Source: an uncultured Desulfobacter sp. (GTDB lineage Bacteria; Desulfobacterota; Desulfobacteria; Desulfobacterales; Desulfobacteraceae). Taken from it: DNA of 64,000 bases. Both the position numbers and the translations under genes were made by a program. The stretch is from positions 3,520,001-3,584,000 of the forward strand of contig OY762069.1 in the NCBI GenBank assembly GCA_963665095.1, given 5' to 3'. Every line of letters starts with the position of its first letter. The first letter of the stretch is position 1. The notes beneath the pieces were generated by a model. The model ran no database searches and was not told the origin of the DNA. It worked only from the letters and a program-made list of their open reading frames with translations. Below are positions 1 to 9,508 of the stretch, one piece after another.

Positions 1-294
1 GCCACCAGAGGGCTTGCCACACGCTGCATCCCCGGCATCAAAGCCAACACGGTGCAATGCCTTTCCCATGTGATGCAGAGCACAGCCCTTGCAACGGTGC
101 TGGTGCCGGTGCTGGGTTATGACCGGGTGGAAGAGATTGTCCGGGCGGCAAAGGCATCTGGCCGCTCCATCCGGGAAGAGATTATCCATCAGGATATTGC
201 TTCCGAAGAGATTGTTGACACACTGCTGTCACCCAAACGGCTCTGCAAGTTAGGCTTTATTCCCGATGAGTTCGATGGGGTAAACAGAAAATGA
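1..294 (+). CDS. aspA: Aspartate ammonia-lyase (fumarase/aspartase superfamily), 3' fragment
   Basis: Frame open from base 1: ...RCIPGIKANTVQC...STALATVLVPVLGYDRVEEIVRAAKASGRSIRE...LLSP, a typical aspartase/FumC C-terminus; aspA is a known neighbour of hydEFG genes. Confidence 0.75.
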   Translation, partial: ATRGLATRCIPGIKANTVQCLSHVMQSTALATVLVPVLGYDRVEEIVRAAKASGRSIREEIIHQDIASEEIVDTLLSPKRLCKLGFIPDEFDGVNRK

Positions 295-341
295 AGTTCA
301 TGACAGGATTGAAAAAGGATTTCCCCTAAGGAGAATTGCTT

Positions 342-1547
342 ATGTCCAGTAAGGCCCCCCGCGGTGTTCGTCTCGTTATTGCGCTGGTTGGCAGGCGCAA
401 TGCGGGAAAATCGTCTCTTATCAATGCCATTTCCGGACAACAGATTGCCATTGTTTCCGACCACCCGGGTACCACCACGGACCCTGTGGCCAAGCAGTAC
501 GAGCTTCTGCCTCTGGGGCCGGTCACCTTTTATGATACAGCCGGGCTGGATGACGAGGGAGAACTTGGCGACCTGCGTGTCAAAGCCACCCGCAGGATTC
601 TGTGGCGGTCGGATGTGGCTGTGGTGGTGGTTTCAGAGCACGGCATCACCGATTATGAAAAAAAGATCATTGATGAAATCCGCGAACTGGAAATCCCCTT
701 TATCATGGTGTTCAACAAGAGTGATTTAAAAACACCTTCTGGCGAAGAGCTTGCCTTTTGCAAGGATAATTCACTGCCGTATATTGTCACTTCCGCCCTG
801 GACGGGGTGAATGTCACGGCGGTGAAAGAGGCGATCATCGACATTGCCCCGCCCGAAATCAAGCGTGAGCCGGTCCTGGCCGGCGATTTGATCAGTGAGG
901 GCGACTGGGTGGTCTGCGTGGTACCCATTGACCTGGCCGCCCCCAAGGGACGGCTGATCCTGCCCCAGGTCCAGGTGCTGCGTGAAATCCTGGACTGCGA
1001 TGCCCTGGGGATCATGGTTAAGGAGAGGGAGATTGACGAGGCCCTTTCGGGTCTGAGCCGGAAGCCCGCACTGGTGATCACCGATTCCCAGGTGGTGATG
1101 AGCGTGGCAGGAGACGTGCCTGAAGATATCCCGCTCACCACCTTTTCCATCCTGTTTGCCCGGTACAAGGGGGATATCGGCCAGCTCATCGCCGGGGCCG
1201 CCGCCATTGATGATCTTAAGGACGGGGACCGGGTCCTCATTGCCGAAGCCTGCTCCCACCATCCGGTGGCTGACGACATCGGCCGGGTTAAAATCCCGCG
1301 CTGGATCAACCAGTACACAGGCAAGGATTTGCATTTTGATGTCTATTCCGGCCACGATTTCCCCGACGACCTGGAGAGGTACAGGCTGGCGATCCATTGC
1401 GGGGGGTGTATGATCAACCGCGTGGAAATGCTGCGCCGGATCAAGGAGTGCCGCCGCCGGGGGGTGGCCATTACCAATTTCGGCCTGGCCATCTCCAAGG
1501 TCCAGGGGGTGTTTGACAGGGTGATAAAACCGTTTGGGAGGATGTGA
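342..1547 (+). CDS. hydF: [FeFe]-hydrogenase H-cluster maturation GTPase HydF
   Basis: GRRNAGKSS P-loop, PGTTTD, DTAG, NKSD, PKGRLILPQ, and Fe-S ligand motifs EACSHH and HCGGC; RBS AAGGAG 8 nt before ATG 342. Confidence 0.95.
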   Translation: MSSKAPRGVRLVIALVGRRNAGKSSLINAISGQQIAIVSDHPGTTTDPVAKQYELLPLGPVTFYDTAGLDDEGELGDLRVKATRRILWRSDVAVVVVSEHGITDYEKKIIDEIRELEIPFIMVFNKSDLKTPSGEELAFCKDNSLPYIVTSALDGVNVTAVKEAIIDIAPPEIKREPVLAGDLISEGDWVVCVVPIDLAAPKGRLILPQVQVLREILDCDALGIMVKEREIDEALSGLSRKPALVITDSQVVMSVAGDVPEDIPLTTFSILFARYKGDIGQLIAGAAAIDDLKDGDRVLIAEACSHHPVADDIGRVKIPRWINQYTGKDLHFDVYSGHDFPDDLERYRLAIHCGGCMINRVEMLRRIKECRRRGVAITNFGLAISKVQGVFDRVIKPFGRM

Positions 1548-3214
1548 TGCCTCCTGGAAAAAGCGGTACTGTTTTTGCCGGCAAGATTTTAGACCCGCCA
1601 CCTTCGGCCCGCCGAAAAATTTTCTGCCCGGGCAATACCCTGATTGTCTGCGCAAGACTGGCCTGCGGGCATGTGGAGGAGGCCTGGAGTTCCGGCCGGA
1701 TGATGCGCAACATGGATCTGCTGCTCCAGGGGGAGCTGGATGAACAGAGTCGTCCCTGTTTTGCCCTTCGGGCCAACGGTCTGTGCAATGCCGGGCATAA
1801 GCTGGCTGCAGTGCGGGCACTGGAAAACCTGGCCGGGATAACGCCGCCCAGAAATGCCTGTCTGGCCCGCAGCCTGGTCCAGGCCCTTCGATGTATTCAG
1901 GAGCATCTGCTCCATTTCTATCAGTTTCACCTCTCCAACTGGACCTGTCTGGCACCGGCCCTGCGGGCGGATCCCTGTAAAACAGCCCGGCTGGCCGAGA
2001 ATTCTGGCCGGGCAACCGGATATTTCAGGCAGTGCCAGCAGCGACTGCAGCCCCTGGTCCAAGGCAAAGGGATCAACGGGTTGGGTCTGCGGGATCATGA
2101 GGATTACTGCGGATCAAATGAGTTCCATCTTCTGGTCTTCAGCCACAGCCTGGAATCCCTCCAGACACAGGCGCTGCTCAACAGGGCGTTAGGGTTGATG
2201 GGCTATGAAAACGGGCGGTGTAAAGCCTATCATATGGGTGGCCTTCCGGAAGATCTGAACCTGGGCGGAAAGGTTCTGCAGCACCTGCGCGATCTTCTTT
2301 TGCAATGCCGGGATTTTGTCTGTTCCGTTTTCCTTAAAGACCTTGAACAGGTGGCCCGAACCTATGGCCATTGGAAAGATCTGGCCAAAGGAAATACCTT
2401 TCTGGCCCTGGGCGATTTTGGCCGCCCCCGTGACAGCGAAGGTCAGCTCTTTCCGGCCGGTATTATCTGTCTGGAAGGGGTGACCCCAAAAATTGATCCG
2501 GTGCAGACCGGCCGGATCCGGGAAGATAAGAACCCGCAATGGAACCGCCTGGACCAGGGACACTACCGTCTGGATTTTGGGGATCATGGCCCTGGATTTC
2601 ACTGGGGTAAAGGTGATTTTCACTGGCTTACAGCCCCCCGCCACGGCAGCCACCCTTGCGAGGCCGGGCCCCTGGCCCGGGTGGCCGGCGCCTTTGCCCA
2701 TGGCCAGAAGGCGGTACACCAGGCGGTCAATGACTCTCTTGCCGCCAGCGGGCTTGAACCCGAAGATCTGAACTCCGCTTTGGGCCGCCTGCTGGCCCGG
2801 GGCATTGAATCTTCGGTGCTGGCCCAGACCACCCTGGCATGGCTTGAGGAGTTGGAGACCTCTCTATCCCCGGGAGAGAGCAGGATGGGCGAAGAGGTCC
2901 GCCTGCCTGCCGCAGGTATTGGCATCGGTCATGTGGAGGTGCCAAGGGGGGCTCTGACCCACACCATCCAGGTGGAAAAAAACAGAATCATCCGCCATGA
3001 CTATCTTATTCCCTCGTTGTGGAATTTTTCCCCGCGGGATTCAAACCAGGTGCGCGGCCCTCTGGAACAGGCGCTTTTGGGAACGCCGGTGACTGATCCG
3101 GATCACCCCCTGGAAATTTTACGCATTGTACATGCATTTGATCCCTGCAACCCCTGTCATGTGGTGGTGGAGGACATGGATTCCGGGAAGACGACTGTGG
3201 TGGATGGGGAATAG
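1544..3214 (+). CDS. Divergent [NiFe]-hydrogenase large-subunit homolog (L1 motif RANGLC, L2 motif DPCNPCH)
   Basis: AWSSGRMMR, EHLLHFYQFH, APRH...EAGPLAR, EVPRGALTH, IPSLWNFSPRD...GPLEQAL, HAFDPCxxC align with group-1 large subunits; start overlaps the hydF stop (GTGA). Confidence 0.85.
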   Translation: MMPPGKSGTVFAGKILDPPPSARRKIFCPGNTLIVCARLACGHVEEAWSSGRMMRNMDLLLQGELDEQSRPCFALRANGLCNAGHKLAAVRALENLAGITPPRNACLARSLVQALRCIQEHLLHFYQFHLSNWTCLAPALRADPCKTARLAENSGRATGYFRQCQQRLQPLVQGKGINGLGLRDHEDYCGSNEFHLLVFSHSLESLQTQALLNRALGLMGYENGRCKAYHMGGLPEDLNLGGKVLQHLRDLLLQCRDFVCSVFLKDLEQVARTYGHWKDLAKGNTFLALGDFGRPRDSEGQLFPAGIICLEGVTPKIDPVQTGRIREDKNPQWNRLDQGHYRLDFGDHGPGFHWGKGDFHWLTAPRHGSHPCEAGPLARVAGAFAHGQKAVHQAVNDSLAASGLEPEDLNSALGRLLARGIESSVLAQTTLAWLEELETSLSPGESRMGEEVRLPAAGIGIGHVEVPRGALTHTIQVEKNRIIRHDYLIPSLWNFSPRDSNQVRGPLEQALLGTPVTDPDHPLEILRIVHAFDPCNPCHVVVEDMDSGKTTVVDGE

Positions 3215-3241
3215 GGCCGGATAAAAAACTGGAAATAACAC

Positions 3242-4255
3242 ATGATGAAACGAAAAAACATATTAGACGCACTGAAAGATAAAGCCGGGCAGGAGGATCT
3301 CTTTGCAGCGGCAGACCAGGTGCGTAAAACCAACCTGGGCGACACAGCCCAGCTGCGCGGCGTGGTCCATTTTTCAAATTACTGCCGGTGCAACGACCTT
3401 TACTGTGGTCTGCTCAAGGATAATCCCGGGTGCAAACGGTTCCGCATGGGTGAAGATGACATTGTGGACACAGCCCTGGCCATTGCCGGCGCCGGCCTGA
3501 AAACCGTGGTCCTGCAGTCGGGTGAGGACCTTTATTACACAAGGGAAATGCTTTGTTCGGTTATTGAGCGGATACTTTCAAAGGCGGATGTGGCCATTAC
3601 CCTGAGTCTTGGGCAGCGGCCCAGAAAGGATTTTCAGGCGTTCCGGGCCGCCGGTGCCCAGCGCTATCTCATGAAGCATGAGACCATGAACCCGGACCTT
3701 TATTCAAGGATGCGTTCGGGCCTGACACTGTCTGACCGGCTGAAGACCATTGATGACCTGCGGGAACTTGGGTTCCAGGTGGGCGTGGGCAATATTGTGG
3801 GCCTGCCCGGCCAGACGATTGCGGACCTGTGCGAGGATATCCTGTTTTTCCAGGATTTCCAGCCGGATATGATCAATATCGGCCCTTTCATCCCCCATGC
3901 CCAGACCCCGCTCAAAGATGAACCGGCCGGGGATATAGAGCTGATGCTCCGGGTGTTTGCCCTGACACGAATTGTCACCGGCAACACCCACATGGCTGCG
4001 GCCAACACTGTGGCCACCCTGGACCCTGAACAGGGCCAGTACCGGGCACTGACCCAGGGCGGCGCCAATGTTATCATGCCCAACTGCAATCCGTTTCAAA
4101 AAAGTAAAACAGACAAAATAGAATATGAGTTTCAGATTACCACCCATAAACGGTATGTGTCCGTGGATGAGGCAAGAAATGTGCTTAAACGGGCAAAGCG
4201 AACTATAGACAAGGGGAAAGGACACTCCCTTAAAATAAAAGGAGACGCGTTTTGA
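3242..4255 (+). CDS. HydE-like radical SAM protein (BioB/HydE family) with atypical cluster motif
   Basis: LRGVVHFSNYCRCNDLYCGL, TVVLQSGED, LSLG, RYLMKHET, VGLPGQT, IGPFIPHAQTPL, GANVIMPN; C-terminus diverges from canonical HydE. Confidence 0.8.
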   Translation: MMKRKNILDALKDKAGQEDLFAAADQVRKTNLGDTAQLRGVVHFSNYCRCNDLYCGLLKDNPGCKRFRMGEDDIVDTALAIAGAGLKTVVLQSGEDLYYTREMLCSVIERILSKADVAITLSLGQRPRKDFQAFRAAGAQRYLMKHETMNPDLYSRMRSGLTLSDRLKTIDDLRELGFQVGVGNIVGLPGQTIADLCEDILFFQDFQPDMINIGPFIPHAQTPLKDEPAGDIELMLRVFALTRIVTGNTHMAAANTVATLDPEQGQYRALTQGGANVIMPNCNPFQKSKTDKIEYEFQITTHKRYVSVDEARNVLKRAKRTIDKGKGHSLKIKGDAF

Positions 4256-5007
4256 TTAAAGTCGCCATATACGGCAAGGGAGGCATTGGTAAATCCACAG
4301 TGACATCAAGCATTTCTGCTGCCTTAGGCGTTCAGGGATACAATGTCATGCAGATCGGCTGCGATCCCAAGACCGATTCCACCATCAATCTTCTGGGCGG
4401 TAAGGCCCTGACTCCCATCCTTCAGTATCTCCAGGAACAGGGACGTCCTGATACCCTGGACGATATTTCCAGGCGCGGGTTTGCCAATACTGTCTGCATG
4501 GAGGTGGGCGGTCCCACCCCGGGGGTGGGCTGCTTTGGCCGGGGCATGCTGACAGCCTTTGAACTCCTGGACGAGATGGGGGCCTATGATACCTGCCGGC
4601 CGGATGTTGTGTTTTACGATATCATGGCTGATGTGGTGTGTGGCGGCATTGCCGTGCCCATGCGCGAGGGGTTTGCCGACAAGGTCTGCATTGTCACTTC
4701 CGGCGAAAAGATGGCGCTTTTGGCAGCAAAAAACATTATAACGGCCCTGCGCAATTTTGCCGACCGCAACTACGCCGAACTTGGCGGGCTGATCCTCAAC
4801 TGCCGGGACATGCCTGACGAAGTGGCGCGGGTGGACGCCTTTGCAAAGGAGATGCAGACCGAAGTGATCGGGGTGATCCCCCGGGACAGGGCCATCCATG
4901 CGTTTGAGGAGGATGGCAAAACCATTGTGGAGGGGGATCAGACCCTGCCCACCTCGGTCTGTTTTTTTGATTTGGCTAAAACCATTATCGGGTTTAAAAG
5001 TGAATAA
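4252..5007 (+). CDS. Nitrogenase iron-protein-like ATPase (NifH/CfbC/BchL family)
   Basis: YGKGGIGKST, IGCDPKTDST, EVGGPTPGVGCFGRG, DVVCGG (both [4Fe-4S] Cys retained); TTG start overlaps the upstream stop. Confidence 0.9.
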   Translation: MIKVAIYGKGGIGKSTVTSSISAALGVQGYNVMQIGCDPKTDSTINLLGGKALTPILQYLQEQGRPDTLDDISRRGFANTVCMEVGGPTPGVGCFGRGMLTAFELLDEMGAYDTCRPDVVFYDIMADVVCGGIAVPMREGFADKVCIVTSGEKMALLAAKNIITALRNFADRNYAELGGLILNCRDMPDEVARVDAFAKEMQTEVIGVIPRDRAIHAFEEDGKTIVEGDQTLPTSVCFFDLAKTIIGFKSE

Positions 5008-5017
5008 GGATATTTGT

Positions 5018-6316
5018 ATGGATCTGGATCAAGCCCGCATCAGGGTTGAACATTTACGCAAGAAGCCGGATTTTCCCTTTGCGCCTCTGGAAGGGGTTGG
5101 CCCGAACCTGGCCGGCTGGGGGGTGATCGAGACCTCCCTGATTCTGCCCGAGTCTGTGGCAGTGATGGTGGGGCCCTCGGCCTGCCTGCGCCATTCAGCC
5201 TTTATGGCCCATGCCAGGGGTTTTACCGAACGCTTTTATATGCTGTGCGTGCCGGAACTGGACATGTCCATGGGTAATCATCTGTCCCGGGTGGAGGCCG
5301 CCATCAAGGATATTGCGGACCGGCGCAGTGAAAAGGTCCTTTTCCTGATTGTGGGGTGTCCGGACTATATCCTGGGCACGGATTTCACAGGCGTGATCAA
5401 ACGCCTGGAGGCATCCACGGGCAAAAAAATAATTCTGGGGGCCATGGCGCCCATTACCATCGGGATGAAAGAGTCACCCTTTACCTCGGCCTATACCTCG
5501 TTTTTTGAGTTTTTAAAGGATGAGCCCCGGGTGCCGGATGACGGGGTGGTCAACCTTTTAGGAACTTTTATGCCGCTGTCGGATGACGGGGAGTTTTATC
5601 AGGTGCTGTCGGCCGCCGGCATGGATACGGTGCTGCAGATTCCCTTGTGCCGGGATCTGAAGCAGTTTTCAGGCATGGCCCATGGCCGGGCCTCGGTGGT
5701 CCTGCACCCCCTGGCCAATGGCCTGAGCGGCAAAATGGAGAAGGAGATGGGCATTCCCGCCTGTTTTGCCCCCACCTCCTACGGGTTTTCCGTGATCCGG
5801 GACCTTTACGGAAAAATCAGCGAGGCTGTGGGAAAACCTTTGGATATTGAATCCCATGAACAGTCGGCACGCAAGGCGGCGGAACCGTTGCTTGAAAATT
5901 TACGCGGCAAATCTGCGGCCGTGGGCTGCAGCATTAACGGAAGCCCCTTTGAACTGGCCCTGTTCCTGGTTCAACATGGTGTGAATGTGGAGACCATTTT
6001 TGCCCGGGGCGCCATCAAACCTTACGAATGGGACCTCATCGAACAGTTGCGCGGGGCAAAACCGGATATCCAGGTATACAATGCCTCCCATCCGGCCTTG
6101 TGCGGGCAGACAACCCCTTTTAACCAGGTGGAGATCGCCTATGGCGTTGACGCGGGCATTTTCTGTGTCAATGCGGCCAATGTGCCGCTGTCACGCTACC
6201 AGGAGCAGAAATACGGGTTTGAAGCCACGGTCTGGATGCTGGAACATAGCTGCGAGGCCCTGGCCAATCCGGTGGACAACTATGACTGGATCTACCGGCA
6301 CAATTTTTTGATATAA
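5018..6316 (+). CDS. Nitrogenase component-1-like oxidoreductase subunit A (NifD/NifE/BchN fold)
   Basis: GPSACLRH, ELDMSMG, VGCPDYILGTD, VNLLG, PTSYG; RBS AAGGA before ATG 5018. Confidence 0.8.
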   Translation: MDLDQARIRVEHLRKKPDFPFAPLEGVGPNLAGWGVIETSLILPESVAVMVGPSACLRHSAFMAHARGFTERFYMLCVPELDMSMGNHLSRVEAAIKDIADRRSEKVLFLIVGCPDYILGTDFTGVIKRLEASTGKKIILGAMAPITIGMKESPFTSAYTSFFEFLKDEPRVPDDGVVNLLGTFMPLSDDGEFYQVLSAAGMDTVLQIPLCRDLKQFSGMAHGRASVVLHPLANGLSGKMEKEMGIPACFAPTSYGFSVIRDLYGKISEAVGKPLDIESHEQSARKAAEPLLENLRGKSAAVGCSINGSPFELALFLVQHGVNVETIFARGAIKPYEWDLIEQLRGAKPDIQVYNASHPALCGQTTPFNQVEIAYGVDAGIFCVNAANVPLSRYQEQKYGFEATVWMLEHSCEALANPVDNYDWIYRHNFLI

Positions 6317-6325
6317 GGATCATTT

Positions 6326-7543
6326 ATGAAAGAATATCATCATCTCCTCCCCCTGGCCACGGGCTATTTCGGGGTCAGTTCGGCGCTCTATGATTTCGGT
6401 GGGTTAGTGGTCATCTACGGGCCTGCGGGCGGTGCATGGCATATCAATATCGAGGATGAACCGCGCTGGTACCGGGGGCCTGCCACGGTTGTCGGGGCAG
6501 GGCTTCTGGAAATGGATGTCATCCTGGGCAATGACGACAAATTCATCAACAATATCGTGAAGACCGCCAAAGGGTTGAACAGCCCGTTTGTGGCCCTGTC
6601 AGGCACCCCGATCTCGGAAATTATCGGGACAGACCTTAAAGGGTTTGCCCGGACCGTGGCAGCCCGGACCGATATCCCGGTGTTCATGGTGCCCACGGCC
6701 GGCTCCGAACCCTATCCCGAGGGCGCATCCAAAGCGCTTCTGGCCCTGGCAGACACCTTTATGGACCCGGATGCCCCTAAACGCCCCAAAGGGGTCAATG
6801 TGCTTGGGGCCATTCATCTTTCCACGGGCAAGGAAGGCCATCTTGATCCTCTGTTCAAAGCGGTTCAGGATGACGGGTTTGAACTGGTAAGTGTCCTTTC
6901 AGCCCCGGTTTCCGGACAGGAAGATCCCCTGGAGGGCGTGCGCATGGCACCGGGAGCCCGGATCAATGCCGTGGTCTCCACCAGCGGGATCGCCCTAGCT
7001 GAAAAAATGTTTGCAGAATATAAAATCCCCTTTGTGGCGGGCATGCCTGTGGGGCTGTCCGGCCGTGACGCCTTTCTGGCCATGCTGCACAGGGAAAGCC
7101 CTGATTTTCAGGTACCAAAGAAAGAAAAAACACCCTATAAACACGCCCTGATCATTGGCGAGCCGGTTCTTGGATATGGGATCCGGCATTGTCTGCGCTA
7201 CGACTTTGGCATCCCAAAGGGGGACGTGGTCTCAGTGACTCCCAGCGATCCACTTTTCAAGGCGTCCCAGGGCCGGGCAGGCCTTTTGGCCGAACGTGGA
7301 CCGGCTGACCTGGACACAGATGACGAACAAGCGATAGCCCAACTCATGAACAACCGGGAAGTGGACCTGGTGGTGGCAGACCCCTGTTACCAGCCCCTGC
7401 TCAAGAATAAGGCCGCTTTCATCCCTGTACCCCATGTGGCCATGAGCGCCCGCATCCATTGGGACATGGACTACGAATACGTTATGGACAACGGTTACGC
7501 CTATCTGGCGTCCTATTTGTCAGGCAATGGCCCCTGTTTATAA
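6326..7543 (+). CDS. Nitrogenase component-1-like oxidoreductase subunit B (NifK/NifN/BchB fold)
   Basis: GVSSALYDFGGLVVI, EDEPRWY, LLEMDVILGNDDK, GTPISEIIGTD, VNVLG, ADP motif; typical partner of the preceding gene in nitrogenase-like clusters. Confidence 0.8.
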   Translation: MKEYHHLLPLATGYFGVSSALYDFGGLVVIYGPAGGAWHINIEDEPRWYRGPATVVGAGLLEMDVILGNDDKFINNIVKTAKGLNSPFVALSGTPISEIIGTDLKGFARTVAARTDIPVFMVPTAGSEPYPEGASKALLALADTFMDPDAPKRPKGVNVLGAIHLSTGKEGHLDPLFKAVQDDGFELVSVLSAPVSGQEDPLEGVRMAPGARINAVVSTSGIALAEKMFAEYKIPFVAGMPVGLSGRDAFLAMLHRESPDFQVPKKEKTPYKHALIIGEPVLGYGIRHCLRYDFGIPKGDVVSVTPSDPLFKASQGRAGLLAERGPADLDTDDEQAIAQLMNNREVDLVVADPCYQPLLKNKAAFIPVPHVAMSARIHWDMDYEYVMDNGYAYLASYLSGNGPCL

Positions 7544-7645: not shown

Positions 7646-9508
7646 TCAACTGCGGCAGACTTTCGGCAAAGGAACGGCCAGGCTTAAATATTTGCCGTTT
7701 TCCTCAAACATCAATTTTTTATCTGTCATCATTTTCAAAAAAGGTGTTACTTTTTCCCGGGTCAATTCCTGAAAATGAAGAAGAATTTTTTCCAGTGACC
7801 GGTGCTGGCCGCAATAGAGATAGACTTCCCTGGAAAGCCCTTCCAGGCGGTGAGTTAAGGGCTCTTTTAAGAGCCGCTTCTGGCGGATAATCATAAACTC
7901 TTTTCCATCCCGATAACTTAGAATCGGCGTATCACCACCGGTTTGATGAATCCGGGTATATGTTTTTTCCCAGTCATGAACTTTTTGTCTCACCGGCCGC
8001 CACAGTTTTTTCTGGTATCCCATGTCACCGCGGTACCTCTGGATCAGAAAGGTCATGCTGCGGTGAATATGTTCCGGAAAAATTTTTGCATAATTGGGAT
8101 GGTTAAAAAGGGCCTTGACCCCAAAGTGCTCTGGATCATTGTATACACAGCTTCCATGGCCCATCCAGAAATGCACCAGTTTGGGAGGACGGAAAACCGC
8201 TGCAAACTCAATGTTTCGGAGGGTTTCATTCATGTCTTCAATATCACTGCCGGGAAAATGAAGTATCAGGTTGGCATTATTGGCAATACCTAAGCCTTCA
8301 CAGTGCTTCATGATTTCCAGATTCTGAATGGCGGTGGTTCCCTTGTTTAATTTTTTCAACAGACGGGAGCTTAAGGATTCGATACCGATCTGTACTTCGC
8401 TGACGCCGGCACAGCTCATTTTTTCCAGTACCCGTTTTGGGGTGGTGGCCCTGAGTTCACAGAAAAGTTTGAGGTCTTTTTTTAATCCGGACAGTTGATC
8501 AAACATCTCCAATGCGGTTTTTACCGGTATGAGGTTGTCCATGAACGTCACGGAAAGTGTGCGATATTTTGAAGTCAGATAATCTATTTCTCTGCTTACC
8601 TGTTCCGGGCCTTTGCACCGGTATCCCTGCCAGTTACGGTTAAGATTGCAAAAAGCACAACCTGAATGTCCTGAGTTGGAAGCCTGCCACCGGCATCCCC
8701 GGGAGGCCTCGGCCGGGAGCGCAGGGAAAAAACTTTTATCCGGCGCTCCTGTTTTCAGTAAATAAAAATAGTCGTCATAATCGGGAGCAGGCAGATTTTT
8801 GAGGTCTGGCATCTGGCCAAAGGTTACCGGGGCTTTACTTCTGCAGGAATGACGCGTAACAAGGCCGGGAATGCGGGAGATAGTATCAGTGTCAGCTGAA
8901 TTGCCAAGATGATGCACAAGGCTGCACAGGGGTCGTTCTCCTTCACCGTTAATGACAAAATCAATTTCCGGGAAAGCCTCAAAAAGGCCCTTAATGGTAT
9001 CTCCGGCAAACATGGAGCCGCCAATGACAATGGGGAGGGTTGGAAAGTTCTTTTTTATGGAACGGATAAAGTACAAAGAGGAGCAGAGCTGGCAAAAGCA
9101 GATTGAAAAGCCTGCCAGGCCCCAGCGATCCCAGTTGATACTGCGGATAAAGTCATCCGCAGTCTCTGCTGCCTGATGTGTGAGGACGTTGAAGTCGGCC
9201 CTGGATGACAGGGGCAGGCCCCTTGCTTCCTTGTGGAACAGCGCCTGGATGCGGTGGAATCGTTCCGGATATAAGAGCGCCGCATAAACGGATTCTGCCA
9301 GCCAGTTTTTTTTAGAAATTTCACGATAAAGGGGATAGCCGATGGCTGTTGCTAATTTCAAATAGAAATGGTGAGCCGCCACCTCAAGATCGGGAATCTC
9401 CCGGTTCAGGTATGCTTTCAGCGCACCAAGCTGAATGGATGGCCGGCTGAAAAGCGGCCAGGGGGCGGATATAAGCGCAATACGTGCTATTTGATTTTTA
9501 GAAATCAT
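7646..9508 (-). CDS. B12-binding radical SAM protein, RiPP-maturation C-methyltransferase type (TIGR03975-like)
   Basis: PWPLFSRPSIQLGALKAYL, GFS...Q, IVIGG, GEGE, PDYDDYF, EASRGC-x11-CAFC, QIGIESLS, KGTTAIQN. Confidence 0.8.
   Translation of the reverse strand: MISKNQIARIALISAPWPLFSRPSIQLGALKAYLNREIPDLEVAAHHFYLKLATAIGYPLYREISKKNWLAESVYAALLYPERFHRIQALFHKEARGLPLSSRADFNVLTHQAAETADDFIRSINWDRWGLAGFSICFCQLCSSLYFIRSIKKNFPTLPIVIGGSMFAGDTIKGLFEAFPEIDFVINGEGERPLCSLVHHLGNSADTDTISRIPGLVTRHSCRSKAPVTFGQMPDLKNLPAPDYDDYFYLLKTGAPDKSFFPALPAEASRGCRWQASNSGHSGCAFCNLNRNWQGYRCKGPEQVSREIDYLTSKYRTLSVTFMDNLIPVKTALEMFDQLSGLKKDLKLFCELRATTPKRVLEKMSCAGVSEVQIGIESLSSRLLKKLNKGTTAIQNLEIMKHCEGLGIANNANLILHFPGSDIEDMNETLRNIEFAAVFRPPKLVHFWMGHGSCVYNDPEHFGVKALFNHPNYAKIFPEHIHRSMTFLIQRYRGDMGYQKKLWRPVRQKVHDWEKTYTRIHQTGGDTPILSYRDGKEFMIIRQKRLLKEPLTHRLEGLSREVYLYCGQHRSLEKILLHFQELTREKVTPFLKMMTDKKLMFEENGKYLSLAVPLPKVCRS

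Follow-up and report, generated by a model that had tools for sequence, protein, structure and literature searches.

Within a window of 64,000 nucleotides (nt) from the genome of an uncultured Desulfobacter sp. (GenBank assembly GCA_963665095.1, contig OY762069.1, positions 3,520,001 to 3,584,000, forward strand), we identified a seven-gene operon that we read, with a probability of roughly 0.7, as encoding a HydG-independent, Hyp-fed pathway to the [2Fe] subsite of [FeFe]-hydrogenase. The genes encode AspA, HydF, a homolog of the NiFe-hydrogenase large subunit (LSU*), a variant of HydE (HydE*), and NifH-, NifD-, and NifK-like proteins (H, D, and K, respectively); HydE*, H, D, and K, with LSU* where present, are termed the module herein. 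The support for the pathway comes from comparative genomics, in which the module recurs in sulfate-reducing and heat-loving bacteria and is a real, conserved, and apparently undescribed system. Current models derive all CO and cyanide of the H-cluster from HydG, an enzyme regarded as essential for these ligands.

The host genome (G000; one closed contig, 97% complete) encodes two [FeFe]-hydrogenase large subunits (HydA), in which all three H-cluster motifs are intact. Its only hydF and only hydE are the copies in the window. No hydG was found in this genome: the best match to TIGR03955, a PylB-like gene, reached 48 bits (cut-off 312), and a search for the BATS domain returned no match. A likely glycine-cleavage H-protein was recognized by motif. 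The genome has one hypF-C-D-E set, on the opposite strand and beginning 8,471 nt upstream of aspA. Some 20 kb upstream is a NiFeSe-hydrogenase operon, and a true nif cluster is located separately, at 4.84-4.85 Mb. The original prediction for this DNA had listed hyp genes as absent from the window, which is correct but does not extend to the genome.

Across other genomes, the module was associated with HydA and hydF and with the loss of hydG. We sampled 251 genomes of the Desulfovibrionaceae, the family of a Pseudodesulfovibrio metagenome-assembled genome (MAG); 131 had hydF, 150 had HydA, and 113 had a hydG match (110 over the cut-off). LSU*, called at E ≤ 1e-150, was carried by 20 of the 251, and all 20 had hydF and HydA. 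Only 4 of these 20 had hydG, versus 100 of the 111 other hydF genomes (Fisher p = 3e-10, which overstates the association because kin are not independent), and five of the hydG-less LSU* genomes are closed, single chromosomes. In two of the 11 other hydF genomes without hydG (G151 and G294), the module is present but interrupted by the ends of contigs. Among 151 genomes of the host's own family, hydF occurred in seven, three with the module and no hydG, two with hydG and no module, and two with neither. A third family (f36, 38 genomes searched) had five genomes with a canonical-scoring HydE (272-281 bits), all with hydG, and two HydE* genomes (493 and 559 bits), both without. Over all module genomes tested, hydG was absent from 26 of 30 and HydA was present in 29 of 29 (G782 is G252 and was counted once). 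The possibility of a hydG hidden as a weak match was rejected, as the best matches were PylB, HydE*, and ThiH; the BATS matches inspected in closed carriers looked BioB- or ThiH-like, with no readable motif at two of six loci.

The hydF loci of module genomes captured hydG loss in several states. Both hydG and hydE are kept in G277 and G269, hydG is gone and canonical hydE kept in five genomes, and both are gone in G250, G212, G252, and G294; hydA-hydB-aspA-hydF loci stripped of the two genes thus exist in module genomes. In module genome G187, a 160-aa hydG-like stump lies between hydB and aspA (L063:2676-3158). This graded loss suggests that the module replaces HydG and canonical HydE.

A connection to the Hyp proteins is seen in a deeper-branching form of the module. 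Scanning 401 genomes of the phylum with a K profile gave six matches, four of them in two other families (G472, G503, G564, and G661). These four genomes are 99-100% complete and all encode HydA, no hydG was found in any of them, and each has hydE*-H-D-K inside a hydAB operon. The order in G564, G661, and G472, on one strand, is hydA-hydB-TM1266-like-hypE-hypC-aspA-hydF-hydE*-H-D-K-hypF-hypD, with two small genes ahead of hypF in G564; the genes of the G661 operon were confirmed against NCBIfam. The G503 locus consists of two hydA, hydB, a TM1266-like gene, aspA, hydF, hydE*, H, D, K, and hypF, without hypE, hypC, or hypD. No LSU* was found in these four loci, and the NiFe large subunits fetched from the same genomes, which cover some of the partial PF00374 matches, have canonical motifs. 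On this coverage, LSU* was rejected as an essential core part. At least two lineages recruited hyp genes to the cluster, and the module-linked hypD is a second genomic copy in all five Desulfovibrionaceae tested, as is the operon hypD of G472 and G564.

The gene set, which the original prediction had proposed to look for in other genomes, recurred with a gene order conserved beyond chance. The LSU*-hydE*-H-D-K block is arranged identically at all 23 related loci examined (20 from Desulfovibrionaceae, the Pseudodesulfovibrio MAG locus, G012, and G028), and four further metagenome contigs agree with this arrangement over the length they cover. In G012 and G028, the full run of seven genes is present in order, together with two HydA per genome, and hydG is missing; divergent nifU- and nifS-like genes immediately precede aspA in these two genomes (L011:3572-5348 and L012:3404-5376), and not in G000. 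Among the 23 loci, hypC directly follows K in 13, full-length hypD occurs in 9 and hypE in 8, hydF lies within the fetched region in 10, and hydAB in 2; none contains a NiFe small-subunit gene. Close homologs of module proteins are present in the cultured Pseudodesulfovibrio nedwellii, Desulfolutivibrio sulfoxidireducens, and Thermodesulfobium narugense, the last with K and HydE* homologs, and a K homolog occurs in Lebetimonas (protein matches only for the latter two).

Hitch-hiking and decay, in which a mobile cassette travels with hyd genes while hydG is lost independently and the hydrogenases are inactive or matured by scavenging, would account for the closed genomes that lack both hydG and the module. 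It would also fit the composition of the operon (56.4% GC versus 48.7% for the genome, a value reached by 0.4% of 795 equal-sized windows) and its patchy distribution, with D in only 3 of the 151 genomes of the host's family. However, across the 23 loci HydE*, D, and K share 62-84% identity with their counterparts in the window and carry invariant substitutions, the gene order does not vary, and more than one lineage brought hyp genes into the cluster; we regard this explanation as very unlikely. In a FastTree phylogeny of K with seven sister-clade proteins as the root, the 24 LSU*-bearing loci group together on one long stem within the LSU*-less diversity. The K of the window nests among those of Desulfovibrionaceae. 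This topology suggests that LSU* is a later add-on and that the host gained the cassette horizontally.

In the window, all seven plus-strand open reading frames (ORFs) were confirmed, and the co-orientation, overlaps, and gaps given in the original prediction are present in the sequence. The first gene of the run is aspA (aspartate ammonia-lyase, 478 aa, by family scan), whose start lies outside the window, 1,143 nt upstream (G000:3518858), and whose 3' end occupies positions 1..294. It is followed by hydF (342..1547), encoding the H-cluster scaffold GTPase, with 557 bits to TIGR03918 against a cut-off of 326; its ATG start at 342 lies behind AAGGAG, with TTG at 336 as an alternative. Junctions are either overlaps (GTGA at 1544 and TTGA at 4252) or gaps of 47, 27, 10, and 9 nt. 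Spacing and conserved gene order point to probable co-transcription, and a promoter and terminator scan of the region gave no interpretable signal. Converging on the operon from the minus strand (7646-9508) is a B12/radical S-adenosylmethionine (SAM) C-methyltransferase gene of the type associated with ribosomally synthesized and post-translationally modified peptides (TIGR03975, 372 bits, cut-off 282). It was rejected as a member of the system because it was not found in related loci.

LSU* (plus strand, 1544..3214, alternative start 1547) matched PF00374 at E 1e-99 and fell under every NCBIfam equivalog cut-off. Its AlphaFold2 model (mean predicted local distance difference test score 86) has the NiFe large-subunit fold, with a TM-score of about 0.77 to Desulfovibrio enzymes and a Foldseek E of 5e-32 to 2frv. 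We aligned 27 LSU* and 25 comparison large subunits. C81 and C535 are kept in 27/27 LSU*, C538 in 26/27, and the pocket residues H85, R468, L471, and P490 in 27/27 each; the LSU* of the window also keeps S491. We take these to be the Fe-bridging cysteines and the CN/CO contacts, on the assumption that roles carry over from the D. gigas structures through the alignment. In contrast to the iron side, the nickel motifs RxCGxC and DPCxxCxxH, found in 24 and 23 of the 25 comparison subunits, occur in no LSU*: most have His in place of the first Ni cysteine (Asn, N78, in the window), RIEG is replaced by C-x-x-N, and the CxxCxxH end, with its C-terminal His, is lost. LSU* also has a conserved new set of cysteines (C28 in 26/27, C79 in 24/27).

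With the iron pocket kept and the Ni motifs lost, LSU* could accept Fe(CN)2CO and probably does not mature into a nickel enzyme; we predict that it is an accessory part, a carrier of Fe(CN)2CO. To call it a crippled large subunit, as was initially done, is thus too simple, given that the iron-side ligands are conserved across the family. A broken NiFe-hydrogenase pseudogene was rejected, the ORF being full length and about 54 protein clusters having the same substitutions. Another orphan NiFe large subunit was observed on a metagenome contig (L118:2999-4714), with GGVC for CGVC, a DPCQPCALR end, and RIEG kept; it has no small subunit nearby and falls outside the LSU* clade.

H (plus strand, 4252..5007) is a NifH-like, ATP-dependent Fe protein with the P-loop GKGGIGKS and both cluster cysteines (C94 and C130) conserved, and ATP-dependent electron transfer from H to D/K is predicted. 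D (5018..6316, NifD/BchN-like) and K (6326..7543, NifK/BchB-like), both on the plus strand, belong to PF00148. Of the three canonical cluster cysteines, two remain in D (C56 and C114); K has none. At a position occupied by Cys in 38 of 39 sister-clade proteins, K has Gly36, followed by a conserved W38-H39. H scored 274 for nifH (cut-off 394), 268 for CfbC (402), 164 for BchL (345), and 153 for BchX (331), and D/K scored 22 and 45 for nifE (505), 37 for BchN (420), and 24 for CfbD (268). Their nearest solved structures are distant (D, E 1e-17 to PDB 9d9u/9fmg; K, E 2e-8), and their nearest sequence relatives are an uncharacterized clade at 22-37% identity that includes D-K fusions. H/D/K therefore fall in no characterized clade, a placement that the original prediction had singled out for checking. 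A true nitrogenase or NifEN was rejected, since the cut-offs fail, only two of six P-cluster cysteines are present, and the real nif cluster is elsewhere. The sister clade (P0079-P0142) is large and contains many D-K fusions; its named members include proteins of Spirochaetia and Hydrogenispora, and none of the clade retains the first D cysteine.

The half-open cluster site in D/K, the conserved new cysteines of LSU*, and the four genomes that hold the module beside a complete hydG route could also be read as signs of a different cofactor. Hyd- and Hyp-type chemistry would then load a new Fe-carbonyl centre into D/K or LSU*, which would be the working enzyme. We think this unlikely: HydA is present in every one of the module genomes tested, the module lies inside hydAB operons, four of which lack LSU*, and the loss of hydG would be left unexplained. 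The original prediction had put forward an undescribed metallocofactor pathway, which is supported by the conserved gene set and the position of H/D/K outside characterized clades, and had considered two directions for it. Supply of a cofactor by Hyd chemistry to the nitrogenase-like enzyme is not favoured here, and a reductase that serves maturation fits, as the module co-occurs with HydA and hydF, stands in place of hydG in most carriers, and is found within hydAB operons alongside hyp genes. The prediction had overlooked the absence of hydG, the connection to Hyp, and the lack of LSU* in deeper-branching versions.

HydE* (plus strand, 3242..4255) scored 262 bits to TIGR03956 against a cut-off of 255 and has the HydE fold (TM-score 0.91 to Thermotoga maritima HydE). 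The 28 HydE* sequences form one long-stemmed clade in which the middle position of the radical-SAM motif is Asp (CxxxDxxC, 28/28; C48-x3-D52-x2-C55 in the window), versus Cys in 14/14 canonical HydE, and the C-terminal tail is replaced. Among 115 database homologs, Asp occurs with the new tail in 75 and Cys with the new tail in 1. Protein P0367 is of the HydE* type with the new tail and has a full CxxxCxxC motif; Cys at this position suggests that the Asp is a working ligand. HydE* also keeps E95, E147, and R166, which we take to be the SAM-binding motifs of HydE. Equivalents of T. maritima R54, T134, R155, M224, and M291 (numbering read off the alignment) are present in 28/28, the last two being M210 and M279 in the window. 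In the canonical enzyme, M224 and M291 have been tied to the binding of the Fe(I) unit and its dimerization (excerpts of PMC10114646 and PMC11826987). A change of R159 to K was rejected as diagnostic of HydE*, as K is also found in 10 of 14 canonical HydE.

The altered radical-SAM motif bears on an alternative in which the module has the same role by other chemistry. Hyp would give cyanide only (or free CO and cyanide), and H/D/K would mainly cleave a C-S bond, yielding the bridging sulfur, or make CO, replacing the radical step of HydE. The nearest solved relative of D (9d9u/9fmg) is presumably the C-S-cleaving methylthio-alkane reductase (Mar), although the search label read only "Nitrogenase". 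HydE and HydF alone gave about 1% activation from free ligands according to an excerpt of PMC9431212. Still, D resembles 9d9u only weakly, the presence of hypC, hypD, and LSU* indicates transfer of a whole Fe unit, the assumed SAM-binding residues persist in HydE*, and P0367 suggests a functional Asp, which together make this alternative improbable.

For the Hyp-fed, HydG-independent pathway, we propose a sequence of steps modelled on what has been described for the parent systems. HypCDEF build Fe(CN)2CO; its insertion by them into large subunits before nickel is described in PMC8454700. In canonical [FeFe] maturation, HydG makes Fe(II)(Cys)(CO)2CN and HydE reduces and dimerizes it (excerpts of PMC10114646 and PMC11826987), after which HydF, using AspA-derived ammonia, finishes the bridge (PMC11736057). 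In the module-bearing organisms, HypEF and HypCD would make Fe(CN)2CO, with Hyp supplying cyanide and at least one CO. LSU*, where present, would take Fe(CN)2CO from HypC and hold it, a step that deeper-branching versions would skip. H/D/K would then use ATP-driven low-potential electrons to turn Fe(II)(CN)2CO into Fe(I)(CO)2(CN), a ligand swap in which one cyanide would be lost and one CO gained, perhaps from CO2. HydE* would add sulfur and dimerize two units on its two methionines, and HydF with AspA, by analogy the likely ammonia donor for the azadithiolate bridge, would finish the bridge and deliver the product to HydA.

Confidence in these steps falls from the H-cluster product, through the Hyp-derived ligands, LSU* as carrier, and reduction by H/D/K, to dimerization on HydE*. 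We lean toward a second natural route to the H-cluster, free of HydG, in which a Hyp-made Fe-CN-CO unit has its ligands and oxidation state rewritten by an ATP-driven member of the nitrogenase family, with LSU* as a later carrier. The exact chemistry as written (reduction, ligand swap, and dimerization on HydE*) is more tentative, and we would expect some of it to need revision.

Several observations weigh against the pathway or its chemistry. The Hyp product is Fe(CN)2CO, whereas the H-cluster requires Fe(CO)2CN; we found no precedent for such a swap, and the chemistry is proposed from genomes. D/K have only two canonical cluster cysteines and may not be redox-competent. The module-linked HypD is ordinary and forms no clade of its own, and a specialized HypD was rejected on this ground. 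The operon hypD of G661 is the only copy in its genome and must also serve NiFe enzymes. In G000, G012, and G028, the cluster is without hyp genes and the genome holds a single hypD. In addition, hydG is retained by four module genomes. Conversely, nine further hydF-bearing Desulfovibrionaceae lack hydG (fragmented, multi-contig genomes of 2.2-3.6 Mb), and searches of seven of them, using the D profile for four and the HydE profile for three, revealed no module. G037 and G047 (closed, 100% complete) encode HydA and a canonical hydE-aspA-hydF set but lack both hydG and the module; hydG can therefore be lost without the module being present, and a third route or decay is possible in these two genomes. 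An ATP-binding cassette (ABC) importer (binding protein, permease, and ATPase) lies directly upstream of hydE in both (L152:4744-10808 in G037 and L153:9379-15443 in G047), in the place that hydG occupies in G099.

The module shares components with three described systems and differs from each. HydF, AspA, the HydE fold, and linkage to hydAB are common to the canonical HydG/HydE/HydF and AspA pathway, but here HydG is missing, HydE has CxxxDxxC, H43, N212, and a new tail, and H/D/K, Hyp genes, and LSU* are added. [NiFe] maturation by HypCDEF is echoed by the linked, ordinary hypC, hypD, hypE, and hypF and by the fold and Fe(CN)2CO pocket of LSU*; unlike in HypCDEF systems, the hyp genes of the module sit inside an [FeFe]-hydrogenase operon, and unlike [NiFe] large subunits, LSU* stands without a small subunit (23/23 loci), the first Ni cysteine, RIEG, or the C-terminal His. 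A NifH-type Fe protein with two PF00148 subunits is shared with dark-operative protochlorophyllide oxidoreductase (DPOR, BchLNB), chlorophyllide oxidoreductase (COR), CfbCD, Mar, and NifHDK/NifEN, from which H/D/K differ in scoring below all family cut-offs scored and in having two cluster cysteines on D and none on K. The D profile matches 9d9u/9fmg, presumably Mar entries, only at E 1e-17.

In the full-text literature, with subscription papers and the supplementary neighbourhood networks of PMC11736057 outside its scope, we found no description of this combination, and the accessible portions of PMC4794192 and PMC10556730 held nothing further on the module. The closest parallel was in PMC9431212, where Clostridium acetogens have hydE and hydF without recognizable hydG. 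Its authors wonder about an unknown mechanism of ligand incorporation, and the section on these acetogens names no Hyp-fed or nitrogenase-like route. If the pathway is as proposed, [NiFe] and [FeFe] cofactor assembly can be coupled in a natural bypass of HydG, and the assembly lines of both hydrogenase classes and of nitrogenase would be joined in one pathway. It would bring a new kind of substrate for a nitrogenase-like enzyme and, for that family, the first rewriting of ligands and oxidation state on an organometallic iron. It would also be relevant to how [FeFe]-hydrogenases could be matured prior to HydG or in its absence, and genomes scored as having an unmatured [FeFe]-hydrogenase for lack of hydG would need re-reading.

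Additional genes related to module components were observed elsewhere in these genomes. G222 encodes a second, longer HydF paralog (501 aa, L155:9445-10950) with a divergent N-terminus and no hyd neighbours, and similar lower-scoring second hydF matches occur in several Desulfovibrionaceae. The host genome has three more nitrogenase-like H/D/K sets (G000:C1:203560-206844, 254633-258120, and 6139736-6143116), each beside ABC or TonB uptake genes. It also carries a pyrrolysine set (pylB-like, pylC-like, pylD-like, and pylS-like) at G000:C1:896257-900303, adjoining trimethylamine-methyltransferase-like genes.

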